From Chiloscyllium plagiosum (lineage: Eukaryota): a stretch of DNA of 64,000 bases. The notes under the pieces are model-generated. The model saw nothing but the letters and a program-made list of their open reading frames with translations. It was not told the DNA's origin and searched no databases. The DNA is taken from contig NC_057752.1 of assembly GCF_004010195.1 (NCBI RefSeq), positions 3,335,006-3,399,005 on the forward strand, read 5' to 3'. Each line of letters begins with the position of its first letter. Positions within the stretch are counted from its first letter, which is position 1. A program made the position numbers and the translations under genes. This document shows positions 16,411 to 60,769 of the stretch, one piece after another.

Positions 16411-17376
16411 TGGGACAATTTCCCATGGCCAATCCCACCCTAACCTGCACATCTCTGGGACACTATGGGACAATTTCCCATGGCCAATCCCACCCTACCC
16501 TGCACATCCCTGGGCACTATGGGACAATTTCCCCATGGCCAATCCACCCTACCCTGCACATCCCTGGGCACTATGGGACAATTTCCCACGGTCAATCCAC
16601 CCTAACCTGCACATCCCTGGGCACTATGGGACAATTTCCCATGACCAATCCCACCCTAACCTGCACATCCCTGGACACTATGGGACAATTTCTCACGGTC
16701 AATCCACCCTAACCTGCTCATCCCTGGGCACTATGGGACAATTTCCCATGACCAATCCACCGTAACCTGCACATCCCTGGGCACTATGGGACAATTTCCC
16801 ATGGCCAATCCACCCTAACCTGCACATCCCTAGGCACTATGGGACAATTTCCCATGGCCAATCCACCCGAACCTGCACATCCTGGGCACTATGGGACAAT
16901 TTCCCATGGCCAATCCACCCTAATCTGCACATCCCTGGATAGTATGGGACAATTTCCCATGCCCAATCCACCCTAACCTGCACATCCCTGGACACTATGG
17001 GACAATTTCCCATGGCCAATCCCACCCTAACCTGCACATCCCTGGATAGTATTGGACAATTTCCCATGGCCAATCCACCCCAACCTGCACATCCCTGGCC
17101 ACTATGGGACAATTCCCCATGGCCAATCCACCCTAACCTGCCCATCCCTGGGCACTATGGGATAATTCCCCATGGCCAATCCACCCGAACCTGCACATCC
17201 CTGGGCACTATGGGACAATTTCCCATGGCCAATCCCACCCTAACCTGCACATCCCTGGGCACTATGGGACACTTCCCCATGGCCAATCCACCCTAACCTA
17301 CACATCCCTGGACACTATGGGACAATTTCCCACGTCCAATCCACCCGAACCTGCACATCCCTGGGCACTATGGGAC
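16406..17376. repeat. Minisatellite, ~18 copies of a 53-54-bp unit derived from the HE1 internal repeat
   Basis: Unit gcactatgggacaatttcccatggccaatccaccctaacctgcacatccctgg, head to tail with no spacers. Confidence 0.95.
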
Positions 17377-17527
17377 TCTCCGAAGCGTCCCCACCCTTTT
17401 GTTAATGTGGTGACCAGAACCGTGTGCGGTGTTCCAAATCCGGCTGTACCGATGTCATGTGCTACCGTAATATGAGCCGCCAGCTCTTGTCTGTGTGATG
17501 GATTGAGCTGCAGAGTCCACGATTCGA

Positions 17528-26425: not shown

Positions 26426-27421
26426 GTGCTGTCACCTACACATGGGACAGCGTATTCACAGACCTGCAGGAAGAAAGAGCTTCCATTTCCAGAGCACCTT
26501 CCATGATCTCCCTGAGCAATGGCCACCCTTGGTGGCTCTCCAGGTGAAATGAATCAAAAGCCGAGTGATTGAGGAGGTTTGCTCTGGCTGCCATCTTGAT
26601 GTATTATTCTGTTGATGATGTGGACTCGCAACGGTTATGGTATTCCCCCGCCCCCCCCCCCCCAGTGGAAAAACAAAATAAACCTTGAGGTAAATGTCAC
26701 GACAATACATTTACTTAATGAATGTTGTTATGCATGTAGTCAGACTGTAACAGGTATGAATCATTCAGTGGAGTCATTTGTAACAATAATTATTAAAAAA
26801 GCAGCTGTATTTTATGGAAATTCAGCATTGGACGTTCATAAATTGTTAAACACGATTACAGCAGGCTATGGGTAGCAATATATCTGAATCAGTGGCTTTG
26901 GCATTTATTTTAATTACTACAGGAATTTCTATCCATCAGGTTGAAGCTAAAGGCATAATTCTAACCTCTCTCATTGCAAAAGAAGCTCAAATGATATTGA
27001 AGTGCAAGGACTCAACCACGTGTGAAGTAGAAAATGGACTGAGATGATTCAGTGCATGAGCATGAGTGCAGAGCATGAAGCATATTGAATATTGCAACTC
27101 GGCTCAAAGCAAAATGACACATTGAACATGAAACAGTGTGGAGTTTCATTAAACCCTGCAGATCCTCCTGTTCAGATCAAACAGCTACCAAGTGCTGGGG
27201 TTGACTGGTACAGGCTCAGGTTGTGACAAGGATTTGAGTGGACGTGACACCGCACAGTCGAAGCAATTTGATTGCAATTTTCAAGACTTTGAGGAACAGG
27301 CAGCAAGAAACTGTTTCCACTAATTGTGGAGGCTTGGACTGGGTGTGTAGCCGAAACATTAGTGCCAACCTTGTGGGTGTGAAATTAAGAAACATTGTTT
27401 GCACAAAGGAGGTGTAGAGAT

Positions 27422-27816
27422 TGTAACGAGGTCAGTCAGGTGGCCCTCATATAATCTGAGTTCCCTGGTTGGGGCTGTTAATCTGGTCCAATCAGGGAGC
27501 CCTGGCTGACAGACAGAAACAGGAGGGTATAATCCCTGCCCTCCCCTTCACTGTGTGATCACACAGCACTGCCCTTTGATGTGAAGGGCACTGTTTGTCA
27601 CTGGCCACGCGGGTGTTTCCTTTCTCCCTGGTGGTGGGAATTGAATAAAGATTTGTACACCTTGTGTCTTTCAGTGTCTTACACCTGTAAACACACAACA
27701 TGGGTACAGGGGGAGGGGGGGGGGGTAAAAACAAAGCAAAAAAACAGGAGAGTCTGAGGTTCCATTCACTCTGAAAGCTGCCTCTGAGGGAGCTTGATCA
27801 GTGTCTAGGACTCTCC
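27422..27816 (+). mobile_element. Solo-LTR-like repeat (tgtaac start) split by a Tx1-like insertion
   Basis: 27422-27528 matches 58790-58888 (ttccctg..ctggtccaatcagggagccc..gctgacaga.agaaacaggagggt). 27754-27816 matches the 3' half at 59813 onward. Confidence 0.7.
27529..27741 (+). mobile_element. Tx1-like (L1-clade) 3'-UTR, 5'-truncated and A-tailed
   Basis: Homologous to 59180-59375 (cccttcactg..gatcacacagcactgccctttgatgtgaagggca..gaataaagat). Flanked by aaacaggagggt (27517-27528) and aaacaggagagt (27742-27753). Confidence 0.82.
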
Positions 27817-27894
27817 TTTTTTAAATTAATTAATTAATAAAAAGAAACAGGAGGGTGAGAGGCTCTGTTCACTGACAGCTGGCTCTGAGGGAGC

Positions 27895-37252: not shown

Positions 37253-37470
37253 AATAAGCCTCAGATATCACGGGTGATAGGATTGCCTTGGTGACAAGAA
37301 CACTGGATTCTCGAAGCAAGGCGGACAACCCATTCAAAGCGTGGCAGTCAAGGGAAACTTTGGACTGTTCGCCTCTTCATGCAGACAGGAAGTCATGGTT
37401 ACAGGGTATCATGGGATTTGTCAAGGGTTAGCCAAGTCCCAGTGTGTGCAAGATGACTCCGAAACCACGG

Positions 37471-37813
37471 GGCTGGCAGGGAAACGGGAAGAAGGCAGTT
37501 GGGAGCTGACAGGGAAACAGGAAGAGGCCGGTTGGGAGCTGGCAGAGAATCAGGAAGAGGCCGGTTGGGAGTTGGCAGGGAAATGGAAAGAATCCGGTTG
37601 GGAGCTGGCAGGGAAACAGGAAGAGGGCAGTTGGGAGCTGGCAGGGAAACAGGAAGAGGGCAGTTGGGAGCTGGCAGGGAAACAGGAAGAGGGCAGTTGG
37701 GAGCTGGCAGGGAAACAGGAAGAAGCCAGTTGGGAGCTGGCAGGGAAACAGGAAGAGGGCAGTTGGGAGCTGGCAGGGAAACAGGAAGAGGGCAGTTGGA
37801 AGCTGGCAGGGAC
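37471..37813. repeat. 33-bp minisatellite, ~10 copies
   Basis: Unit gggagctggcagggaaacaggaagagggcagtt. Confidence 0.95.
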
Positions 37814-38939
37814 AGGGAGGCAAGATACTAAAGAGTAAAGGAGACTCGCAGAGGTATTCAAATTGTTTTCTTTAAAAAAAAGGTTGGCTTCACGCCATTG
37901 GATAGATTACTGGCAGGGTTAACGTTATCTCTAGCAGCAAAAGCCCCTTCACCCATTGTAGGGGAAATCAAGTGAAATATCCCACTGCAATATCAACTAG
38001 TTATGTCTGGCAAAGGTAATAAGGGAGAAGTATATAACGATGGGCTGTAACGGTAACATGTTAAAATCAAGCTGCCATCCTGGGAGGTTGGAGACTGGTT
38101 GAAATGGCGCTTGGCCTACAACTGGTCTATTGTCAATATGCGCCTTTTAAATTGTTGCCTCTAATCCAAGACACCCACGCAATGAAGTGAGTCATACAAC
38201 AGATTTGTACTGATGAATTGGGCATTGTTTAAGTATTCAGCTACACCGTTAAATGATATGTCATAGCGTGGTGGCAAATGTGTCAGAAGAAAACAAGTCG
38301 TATAATGAAGTGGTCCAATATCCAACTGTGTGAATGAACAGAAGGACTCTGGTTTAATTCATTCGTCTGCTACCCGCTTCAGTACTTTCTCCAACTGTGG
38401 CTTCACCTTCCCCGTTCTGTGCTCTGAACGTTTTCCTGCCTTGTCATTAATCGTGACATCGCAGCTGTGTTCTTTGTACACAACGTTTACAATTTGGCCC
38501 ACCCGCAAATAATATTTCACAGGAACCCAGGAGCAATTTCCCAGCCTGCCACCGGCAGAGGAATTCTCAAAATTCCGTCTCGACTGTGTCGCGCAAATGC
38601 ATAATCACGGCGATCATTAACGCAAGCAGGAGTTATTCGAAATAACGTGCTGTCAGTACACCGCTGAATACAGAACACCAACTCGCATTCGTCCACGCTC
38701 ATTATTTTAGCAGAGTCGCCGCAGAAGGGGAGAATTCCTCTCTCGGTTATTTATCACAATCTTACAAAGCACATGCGTTCATGATAATCAAGTGTCAACA
38801 AATGCGCAGAGATGAAATCTTCGCGACAGGATTGAAATTGTGCAGAGTAACGCTGACAACAAACAGTAAGCCGTACCAAGAGTTCCTCCTGCCTGCTTTC
38901 GGAAAGCTGTTAACCTGTTTAAATGAGGCTATGTTTAAA

Positions 38940-57855: not shown

Positions 57856-58888
57856 TGCCACAGTTAAAGCTTGGATGCCATTTTATTGAAGAGGGGCAGT
57901 GACATCTTCGCACAGTCGTGGTTAACTTCAATCCTGAATGAACATCACTCCAGCAGGCTCTCTGCTCATGGTAACATTGCTATTTGTTGCAATGAAAGGT
58001 AACATGACAACCAGTAGCGACACCTCAAAAATACTCCATTGGCTGTAAAATGCTTTAAGACTTCAGGAGGTTGTGAAAGACAGTACAAAGATGCAAGAAT
58101 TTGTTTTGTTTTAATTTGCAACACTGTAGAGAGGGACTGAAATCCCAGCTCTCCCTATCAAACAAACATCAAACCTTAATCCTTTCAGATAAAATGGAAC
58201 AATGATAAACCATGCTCATTACTTTGTACTTATCTATCTAAAATAGACTGCGGTTAGTGACCAAGTTCTTGGCAATATATGAAAATGTACTGGATAAGCA
58301 TAAGTGCTTGCATCTGTTTAAAAAAGGCTTTGTGACTTTGTCATGAGTACAGTCAAACCTGCATTGTCCTTGTGATGATAAGCTTTGCAGTACTTAATTC
58401 TCCCAGGCCATCCACATAACCACACAACAGACTACAATTATAACTTTGTAGTTTGAGATGCTAAAAGCCAATTGTCACAGCTGTAATCATGGCAAATGTT
58501 ACTGTTTTTCAGGTAACGCTGGTTCACAATGTTTTGTTTTGCTTCCCCCCCCAGAACGGTTTCGAAAAAAAAAGCAAGACTTGCATTATATACCTCGTTC
58601 TTCAACCACCAGATGTCTCAACACACTTTATGGTGTGCACAGCAGACTCCCACAAACAGCGATGCAATCGCGACCAATAAATTTGTTTCGGTGATGGTAA
58701 TTAAGCCATTCCGGCCAAATGTCCTCCTTCAGCGCTGCAAATTCCATTTTATGTTTGATGAAGTTTTCCCTCATTGCATATCCGGTGATTGTAACAAGGT
58801 GGGCCTTGTAGAAGATGGGTTCCCTGATTGGCGGCTGTTCACCTGGTCCAATCAGGGAGCCCCAGCTGACAGATAGAAACAGGAGGGT

Positions 58889-59375
58889 CTCCTGATCTTC
58901 GGGCACCCGGTACGGAGGAAGGAGGGCAGGTCTGAAGATCTCCTCGTGGGTCTGCTCCTGGGCCTGGCCAAGCTGGCCATCAACAGGTCCAGGCAGCGGG
59001 CCGTGGAGGGGGTCGTTAGGGCCGACTGCCTGCCCCTCTTCCGCGGTTACGTTAGAGCCCGGGTGTCCTTGGAGAAGGAGCACGCGGCGTCGACCAACAC
59101 CCTGGAGTTGTTCAGGGAGAGGTAGGCCCCCCAGGGAGTGGAGTGCATTATTTCCCCCTCCAACTCTATTTTGATTTAGTCCCCACCCACCCCTTCACTG
59201 TTTTGATCACACAGCACTGCCCTTTGATGTGAAGGGCAGTGCTTGTCACTGGCCACCTGGGTGTTTTTCCAATCTTCCTGGTGGTGGAAATTGAATAAAG
59301 ATTCGTGCACCTTGTGTCTCTCACTGTGTCTCACACCTGCACACACAGACCATGGGTGCTGGGGAAAAAAAAAAT
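58889..59375 (+). mobile_element. Tx1-like (L1-clade) non-LTR retrotransposon, 5'-truncated: ORF2 C-terminus, 3'-UTR and poly(A)
   Basis: Reads LLIFGHPVRRKEGRSEDLLVGLLLGLAKLAINRSRQRAVEGVVRADCLPLFRGYVRARVSLEKEHAASTNTLELFRER*APQGVECIISPSNSILI* (58889-59179). The LLLGLAKLAI..R..R..E pattern is typical of Tx1 ORF2 ends. Flanked by aaacaggag at 58877 and 59376. Confidence 0.82.
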
Positions 59376-59423
59376 AAACAGGAGCATCTGGCCATAAAAA
59401 AAAAGTAAAACCTGGAGAGCGCT

Positions 59424-59673
59424 GCAGGGAGTGGAGTGCATTATTTCTCCCTCCAATTCTATTTTGATTTAGTCCCTACCCTCCCCTTCACTGTTTTGAT
59501 CACATAGCACTGCCCTTTGATGTGAAGGGCAGTGTTGTCACTGGCCACCCGGGTGTTTTCCTATCTTCCTGGTGGTGGAAACTGAATAAAGATTCGTGCA
59601 CTTTGTGTCTTTCACTGTGTCTCACACCTGCACACACACACCATGGGTGCTGGGAAAAAAAAAGGAAAAAAAA
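59424..59673 (+). mobile_element. Second, more truncated Tx1-like copy in tandem
   Basis: Repeats 59132-59375 (cagggagtggagtgcattattt..catgggtgctggg plus poly-A) with independent substitutions. Confidence 0.85.
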
Positions 59674-60089
59674 ACTGGAAATTTTGGAGGGAGTCGTTAG
59701 GGCCGACTGCCTGCCCCTCTTCCGCGAAGAAAAAAAAAGAGAAAAAAAAAGAAACAGGAGGGTAAAATGAAAAGACTGTCAGAGGTTCTGTTTAAAAAAA
59801 AAACAGGAGGGTCAGAGGTTCTGCTCACTCTGAGGGAGCTGGCTCTGAGGGAGCTGGATCAGTATCAAGGAGGTGTAAATAAAGTGGGACTTGGTGATGG
59901 GATACCAACCCATGGGGAGTTATTTCAGGGAGAGCTTTTGGTTTTGAGTCTGATCAGCTAAGTATTTGATTTTAAATGTATAGCGCTTTAAATCTTCATT
60001 TGTTAATTTCTATTTGTACATAAATCTATAATAGCCTAAGGTGAGCATCATGTTTATACAAAGATCTGTCTCTTGAGAAAAAAATATAT

Positions 60090-60211
60090 AAACAGGAGGG
60101 TCAGAGGTTCTGTTGCTGGCACTGAGGGAACTGGATTAGAGTCAAGGACTTTCTATGTGTAGATAACGGGGGACTTGGTGACAGGACATCAGCCTCTGTG
60201 GAGTTATTTCA
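60090..60211 (+). mobile_element. 3' half of the same solo-LTR-like repeat
   Basis: aaacaggagggtcagaggttctg..ggacttggtgac..ggagttatttca, preceded by an A-rich tail. Confidence 0.7.
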
Positions 60212-60769
60212 GTATATTTTCAGTGTTATTGTGTTTGTTGCTGCTCACATTGGATAGCTGGAGTAATTTTGACCCATACATACACACACACACCCATACA
60301 CACACTTACAGTGTAAAAGCAGGAGATGCCCTGCCCAATATGCAAGACACCTCAAAGTCAAAATGACCCCTGAGGGTATTAACTGCCTTTGGAATACAAA
60401 CTCCAGGGAACTGAAAGGTTACAGCACCATAGCTCCTATTGGCTCAGTGACTTGGTTTGAAATGAATTCAATCTTCATTCAGCTAATTGAGTCCTTTTCA
60501 TGCTATTAATTTGACACATCAAATGATTTGGTTTAGGTTACTGTCCAAAGTTAATCTGCCATTACTTGAGTGCATAAATAATAATGGAGTTCAAATTAAA
60601 ATGTATTACTTTGATTTAAATTTTTATCATGTTTCAAGGCAGAATTGTAATGCAAGAGAAATTGGACGTTTAAGTTCTTCTACAAATGGGAGTCAGGAAT
60701 TAATATTTAAATAACAGCATTGATGGTTTGGCCGGATTATTGGAACATCTTTTGCAATCCAATCAGACA

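Follow-up and report, generated by a model that had tools for sequence, protein, structure and literature searches.

Preferential insertion of a Tx1 retrotransposon family at the promoter region of a Gypsy-type LTR in the shark Chiloscyllium plagiosum

The window, the 64-kb stretch of Chiloscyllium plagiosum DNA that was analysed here, holds two copies of an LTR-like repeat in which Tx1-like sequence starts at the same base, which raises the question of whether this retrotransposon family targets the promoter region of LTRs and how insertions accumulate at such a site. The site motif AAACAGGAGGGT was found at 58877-58888 and 27517-27528, with CCAAT boxes at 58848 and 27488, as a preliminary description of the window had it. 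With at most one mismatch, the motif has 7 matches in the 64-kb window compared to 0.47 expected, and two clusters hold all 7. At the main locus, the C-terminus of ORF2 begins right after the site, at 58889, and matches amino acids 1205-1291 of Xenopus TX1 ORF2 at 44%; the second locus contains the same family at the same base and on the same strand with another 5′ start (27530 aligns to 59177). Elsewhere in the window, tandem arrays of 53-bp units (16422-17465) and of 33-bp units (37403-37864) were seen, and the 53-bp unit matches a dispersed repeat in another part of the window.

The features of both loci are listed in Table 1. The main locus had been described as a single 5′-truncated insert; this anatomy was a misreading, and the locus is a stack, in which 58889-60101 consists of at least five pieces with A-tracts and four further site copies (59376, a non-local variant, 59752, 59801 and 60090) between them. 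Unit A has a premature stop at 59123-59125 ahead of the family stop at 59177-59179, and units A and B are both without the terminal tail of ~45 nt that most family members carry. The occurrence of AAACAGGAG at 59376 had been taken for the duplication of the local site, which it probably is not, because the copy at 59376 reads ATAAACAGGAGCAT while the sequence at the local site is AGAAACAGGAGGGT, which returns at 59750-59763, and because the cassette that contains it recurs at three other loci. An LTR end at 59927 was rejected, since the 3′ half and flank found there are copied from a distant LTR and the 5-bp flanks fit an end at 60211 (GCATA/GTATA, compared to GGGAG after 59927). As the LTR's own 3′ half is located at 60102-60211, the supposed other host copy at ~60085 is part of the main LTR itself.

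Table 1. Features of the two filled LTRs in the window.
Feature	Position	Strand	Remark
Host LTR, whole	58781-60211	+	Interrupted by the stack at 58889-60101
Left 5-bp target duplication of host LTR (GCATA)	58776-58780	+	4/5 match to 60212-60216; 1/5 to bases after 59927
Host LTR 5′ part, U3-like, Gypsy-type	58781-58888	+	CCAAT at 58848; TATA position 58874-58879 (TAGAAA here)
Upstream copy of Tx1 target site (AGAAACAGGAGGGT)	58875-58888	+	Motif search
Tx1 unit A: ORF2 C-terminus, 3′-UTR, A-run	58889-59374	+	~45-nt terminal tail absent
Short cassette: non-local site variant, ~12 nt of Tx1 ORF2, A-tract	59375-59404	+	Common to three other loci
Tx1 unit B, 3′ end, 94% to unit A, non-local junction	59410-59675	+	
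Tx1 unit C, 42-nt ORF2 piece and A-tract	59685-59749	+	
Two site copies, the first local, with a short LTR-like piece and its A-tract between them	59750-59812	+	
Captured 3′ half of another LTR with its genomic flank	59813-60076	+	Best source: solo LTR, L075, other contig
A-tract and most downstream site copy, TATAAA intact at 60087-60092	60077-60101	+	
Own 3′ half of host LTR	60102-60211	+	Sequence match and 5-bp flanks
Right 5-bp target duplication of host LTR (GTATA)	60212-60216	+	4/5 match to left copy
Second filled host LTR	27413-27894	+	Site motif and sequence matches
Second LTR, 5′ part	27413-27528	+	
Tx1 3′ end in second LTR	27529-27741	+	
LTR piece with non-local site variant, second LTR	27742-27817	+	
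Local site copy, second LTR	27843-27856	+	
Truncated 3′ half, second LTR	27857-27894	+	

Protein comparison bore out the proposal that the element is Tx1-like. A longer family copy, L064, matches Xenopus TX1 ORF2, the closest named protein, at 56% over 215 aa (243 bits), while the match to human L1 ORF2 was far lower (73 bits, in a separate search in which program and database differ from those of the TX1 comparison). In a tree of 27 rows and 215 aa, with 26 rows hand-picked among the 120 matches listed and no L1 outgroup, the element pairs with a stingray protein (99/94) within a clade that also contains TX1L and sturgeon and turtle proteins (100/99); one alligator protein, not assigned to a family, falls outside the TX1L clade. 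Judged by its sequence, the element belongs to the Xenopus TX1L lineage of the Tx1 clade. It has the architecture of a Tx1 element, with a zinc-knuckle ORF1 and an ORF2 carrying an APE endonuclease, a reverse transcriptase and a C-terminal zinc finger, and 5′ truncation, a poly-A tail and a target-site duplication are all present. The zinc knuckle of the upstream frame (zf-CCHC, E 1e-4) is above the Pfam cut-off, and the RVT_1 and zf-RVT matches are below theirs. A Pfam search with the 78-aa piece of the window gave no match, nor did an exact look-up of the L061 protein. By tblastn, L064 covers amino acids 1-653, 722-1031 and 1079-1291 of TX1 ORF2; it is near full-length Tx1 material, rearranged by an internal inversion and a deletion in a manner that resembles twin priming, and no 5′ end of a full-length copy was recovered. 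An exact 27-mer from the 3′ tail of the family occurs 2,589 times in the 3.56-Gb assembly. The predicted fold of the L037 tail (z = -2.6) pairs differently from a hairpin seen by eye and supports no structural claim.

The host repeat proved to be an LTR, as had been suggested. Host copies are ~230 bp long with TG...CA ends, and in L098 two of them lie ~4.9 kb apart with RVT_1, RT_RNaseH_2 and Integrase_H2C2 between them in Gypsy order, while in L047 an integrase core (rve, E 1e-9) is found upstream of a polypurine tract and an LTR. In addition to these direct LTRs and the polypurine tract, a PBS-like start and a duplication of 4-6 bp were found. Among 29 copies, 10 of them without scorable flanks, the 5-bp flanks matched at 4 or more of 5 positions in 7 of the 19 scorable copies, compared to a mean of 1.0 and a maximum of 6 after shuffling. 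No env-like Pfam match was found in L098, which says little in a decayed copy. By these sequence features the host is the LTR of a Gypsy-type retrotransposon. In empty host copies, TATAAA begins 15 nt upstream of the junction position, and +13 to +19 read TCACTCT. By consensus we take TCACTCT to be initiator-like, with TATA at -29 to the initiator, which puts the insertion downstream of TATA and upstream of the probable start site. In one locus (L056), the junction is at +14, at the initiator-like motif, and not at +1. In L003, L010, L015, L016, L025 and L068, the usual position is occupied in a second LTR variant, which differs from the first downstream of TATA.

A search with the 3′-UTR gave 41 matches at 39 loci (40 of 770 candidates were scored), 8 of which have unreadable 5′ junctions owing to gaps or to stacks beyond view. 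The LTR 5′ half directly precedes Tx1 in 20 of the 31 readable junctions, and 11 lie elsewhere. In a position-ordered sample, which comprises the first 40 tail clusters along contig C1 except L098 and was sorted partly by eye, 7 ends lie in the LTR, 15 lie elsewhere and 18 of 40 are unresolved. Since the two samples differ, the true LTR share lies at roughly one fifth to two thirds. Kojima's threshold for a target preference is that a single sequence type accounts for more than 20% of flanks; 20 of 31 and 7 of the 22 resolved ends exceed it, and the strict lower bound of 7/40 (18%) lies just below it. By rough arithmetic, the chance rate is near 0.0003 even with 100,000 LTR copies. Target-site duplications were found in 28 of 31 loci and measure 14-21 nt in 27 of them, allowing for junction slop, with one 9-nt call that is likely spurious; duplications of this length occur at 20 of 20 LTR sites and 7 of 11 other sites. 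A TATAAA-like hexamer is present 10-18 nt upstream at 17 of 20 LTR sites and 4 of 11 others, compared to 5% of random flank. We are thus highly confident that the Tx1 family targets the LTR promoter region, where it inserts in sense, between TATA and the initiator-like motif, with a preference that is strong and not exclusive. Of the earlier claim of sequence specificity, the preference for the LTR site stands; strictness does not, because 15 of the 22 resolved ends in the C1 sample are elsewhere, and "preferential" is the better word. Three outcomes had been named that would speak against targeting, and none clearly applies: the ORF groups with Tx1 and 5′ junctions differ between filled LTRs, while unrelated flanks, at 15 of 22, come close.

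These insertions are independent, as had been proposed. Many different 5′ starts occur among loci, and in L098 the 5′ LTR is filled while the 3′ LTR of the same element is empty. Among 29 host copies, 7 contain Tx1 (all 7 in sense), 1 contains a captured LTR piece and 21 are empty. Fill rates and specificity are based on small samples and exact-pattern counts: among the 38 exact sites on C1, 16 were classed as having an LTR continuation from the pattern alone, without fetching; 22 fetched C1 sites include at least 13 empty ones, 5 with Tx1 and 4 with other inserts; and the site pattern occurs 1,098 times genome-wide, 484 times continuing as in an empty copy. Two public runs yielded DNA contigs in which 58870-58888 is joined to differing Tx1 points in at least 8 joints (15 of 588 joints listed). 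A single ancestral insertion that was amplified along with the LTR would account for the shared site only, and it is refuted by the varied 5′ starts and the LTR pair of L098, and opposed by the number of empty copies (21 of 29 in one set and at least 13 of the 22 fetched on C1); we give it practically no chance. Other sequences were also seen at this LTR site. A GC-rich insert of unassigned type is present in L083, L092, L050 (~1755-1800, element strand) and at the end of L072; those of L092 and L072 match at 85% over 52 nt and may represent a non-autonomous partner or another Tx1 region. In L093 and L096, the site is followed by sequence like neither Tx1 nor the LTR 3′ half, possibly other captured RNAs. 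In L043, a repeat at 1590-1920, which we take to be SINE-like, lies in opposite orientation inside the site duplication, ahead of the Tx1 stack.

The preference might instead be for open promoter chromatin or for TATA-like AT-rich DNA in general, in which case the LTR would merely be an abundant TATA promoter without extended recognition. The non-LTR sites agree with this, as they have equal duplication lengths and a TATA-like hexamer in the same place in 4 of 11, and so do the second LTR variant, which is hit despite its other downstream sequence, and the tolerance of filled sites for motif changes. However, sites with a mutated TATA (TAGAAA) appear to be reused, as do site copies that lie behind A-tracts and far from the CCAAT box, and one register and strand are fixed across loci. 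On balance, we regard a general TATA or chromatin target as unlikely, though it deserves to be taken seriously.

How the stacks grow can be read from their units. An identical 5′ start was found in 54 of 116 unit pairs from one locus compared to 132 of 5,137 pairs from different loci; in 22 of the 27 loci with several units, the stack has a single shared 5′ start. Within a stack, 3′ ends and A-tracts vary from unit to unit, and between the units lies the site variant particular to that locus. Locus-private variants, each confined to a single locus, recur in neighbouring units with the same start in 28 of 44 cases within 100 nt of the start and in 1 of 31 beyond. In a relaxed check that allowed at most one other locus, sharing was 51/80 near versus 1/10 far in the ORF part and 1/4 near versus 0/34 far in the UTR. 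Variants near the start are mostly ORF and those far from it mostly UTR, which is a confounder; one locus, L015, gives 24 of 25 shared, and per locus the sign test gives 8:1 with 2 ties (p = 0.04). These checks weaken the polar-sharing result without removing it. In 20 of 27 stacks the last unit is more diverged than those upstream of it; this gradient is biased, because best BLAST hits were sampled, and units A and B of the window show the opposite. Since sharing is found mainly in the vicinity of the shared 5′ start, we consider that stacks probably grow by homology-guided re-insertion rather than by duplication. Tandem duplication at the DNA level, or unequal exchange between site duplications after one insertion, would also yield shared 5′ starts within loci, and it fits pairs that are 97-99% identical with most variants in common (L015, L074 and L026) and a nearly exact local duplication of ~150 nt in L098. 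It is nevertheless very unlikely as the general route, in that 3′ ends and A-tracts differ between units, private variants beyond 100 nt are shared in only 1 of 31 cases, and non-local site variants and distant flanks are found inside stacks. The L098 duplication covers the LTR 3′ half and 14 nt of primer-binding region (250-400 versus 1265-1400) and is joined by A-run microhomology to a bare Tx1 tail. A candidate cause for the short pieces of 10-35 nt, AATAAA at the A-tract/site junction, was not supported (12/46 versus 8/36 segments, p = 0.8).

New units could also derive from a transcript that the LTR of the locus itself drives and that is reverse-transcribed back into the same place. The site is ~14 nt upstream of the initiator-like motif, so that a filled LTR could transcribe its insert in sense, and in one single-cell poly-A RNA sample family-level reads are mostly of sense polarity (for example, 425 versus 4 at 59332-59392). 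These reads are poly-A-primed and can come from intronic A-tracts, and only 30 of 2,128 are at least 99% identical. In this one sample, no pile-up of read starts was found, and reads also lie upstream of TATA. A local transcript would moreover be expected to pass on private variants along the whole unit, which was not seen, and we hold this origin to be highly improbable. Plain duplication and a local transcript would both give flat sharing, whereas a chimera with a local 5′ part and a foreign 3′ part would follow from the pairing of cDNA with resident DNA, that is, from homology-guided re-insertion. That the Tx1 element borrows the LTR promoter is conceivable, and we are inclined to doubt it.

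The stacks also contain pieces of other LTRs. For 59928-60075, the flank in the captured half of the main locus, the best match (83%; the next is 73%) immediately follows a solo LTR on contig C10. Aligned to C10, the captured half and its flank match over 267 nt at 80%; the alignment is continuous across the LTR end and stops where the A-tract of the window begins; a 7-nt deletion is common to the captured half and the C10 LTR and is absent from 60102-60211. The first ~11 nt after the site match the local LTR and not the C10 source. The C10 flank is a low-copy repeat with 10 other matches, and the source is only 80% identical. Another capture, in L051, matches an LTR and its flank on C20 at 88% over 142 nt, and one in L045 matches an LTR and flank on C11 at 85% over 169 nt, with the remainder matching C6; the C11 match may itself be a capture. 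Captured LTR halves were thus traced to other contigs in 3 of 3 tested cases. Their A-tails and site duplications suggest an RNA origin, and the captured pieces would derive from RNA copies of distant LTRs. As the cassette at 59375-59404 is found at three other loci with differing neighbours, pieces also travel between stacks, which may occur by 3′ transduction or template jumps.

The explanation that we favour for all of these observations, and hold to be likely, combines TATA-preferring target-primed reverse transcription, site renewal, homology-guided chimeras and the capture of LTR transcripts. The TX1L-lineage element would insert by target-primed reverse transcription, with an endonuclease that would prefer TATA-like sequence and for which the TATA box of a Gypsy-type LTR family would be the best and most abundant site. 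The target duplication restores the site, so that new hits follow and the stack grows, and the repeat hits seem to fall mostly next to the TATA box. Where a new cDNA is homologous to the DNA just downstream of the nick, be it an earlier Tx1 unit or the LTR 3′ half, it would pair there; the resulting unit would start at the same 5′ point and be a chimera of up to ~100 nt of resident DNA with the rest from a foreign RNA. The same machinery would capture polyadenylated transcripts that read from other LTR copies into their flanks.

A Tx1 preference for LTR elements is a habit already known in crocodilians and is not new: Tx1-8_Crp and Tx1-4_AMi likewise prefer specific LTR retrotransposons (Kojima 2015, PMC4494074). 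The passages on these two families in that paper give no position within the LTR element, no link to TATA and no stacks, and place them in the Keno/Tx1-Mar group, which by that description sets them apart from the shark family with its TX1L affinity. Xenopus laevis TX1L in Tx1D also has a sequence-preferring APE endonuclease aimed at a transposon; as far as these sources describe it (PMC4494074, PMC1950540), its target is a DNA transposon and is called stringent, whereas the shark family hits an LTR promoter and has at least a third of its loci elsewhere. In Drosophila R1 arrays, new insertions enter the duplication 5′ of the resident copy, the cDNA of R1 and R2 anneals to the target to give precise 5′ junctions, and array-rich species have frequent off-target R1 insertions (Stage and Eickbush 2009, PMC2718515). 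The shark stacks, with the cDNA pairing proposed for them, are comparable in all three respects, and their chimera step would extend the R1/R2 mode of cDNA-target annealing and insertion into the 5′ duplication. One difference is that R1 and R2 target 28S rDNA; another is that the RNA itself carries the 6-27 nt of target sequence that anneal, and no resident truncated copy takes part. The relevant parts of PMC2718515 mention no chimeric units with a common start for R1/R2. Tx1-Mar mobilises SINEU, for which transcription from the flanking target has been proposed and which gains 5′ additions by template jumps (PMC4494074); the shark Tx1 machinery would likewise bring other RNAs in trans to its target, but SINEU as presented there is a defined SINE family, whereas the shark passengers consist of the 3′ halves of LTRs, with genomic flanks, and of short pieces of stacks. 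The parts of PMC1950540 and PMC3747384 that bear on Tx1 added nothing on a Tx1-LTR pairing. In the literature outside Repbase, Dfam and most subscription journals, no description of this family, of a shark Tx1-LTR pairing, of Tx1 targeting of TATA or of same-start chimeric stacks was found. Features that stand apart from the known habit are the insertion between TATA and start, a specificity that is loose, 5′ junctions fixed per locus, and LTR captures whose sources can be traced, and the mode of stack growth looks less familiar than the targeting.

We tentatively propose that the LTR core promoter could serve as a landing pad that renews itself. The 5′ junctions of later insertions would be set by the first one, through pairing of cDNA with resident DNA over up to ~100 nt; the stack would preserve in order the germline RNAs that arrived there (Tx1 copies, read-through transcripts of LTRs, and cassettes passed between stacks), and source Tx1 copies may use the promoter they target. 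The captured LTR halves with their traceable flanks suggest germline transcription of these LTRs. The joining of the 5′ end of non-LTR retrotransposons is still poorly resolved, and thousands of natural stacks with private variants and a fixed start would read out the reach of cDNA-target pairing genome-wide. An endonuclease of the TX1L lineage that is aimed at a TATA box would represent a shift of target, which is of interest for programmable retro-insertion.
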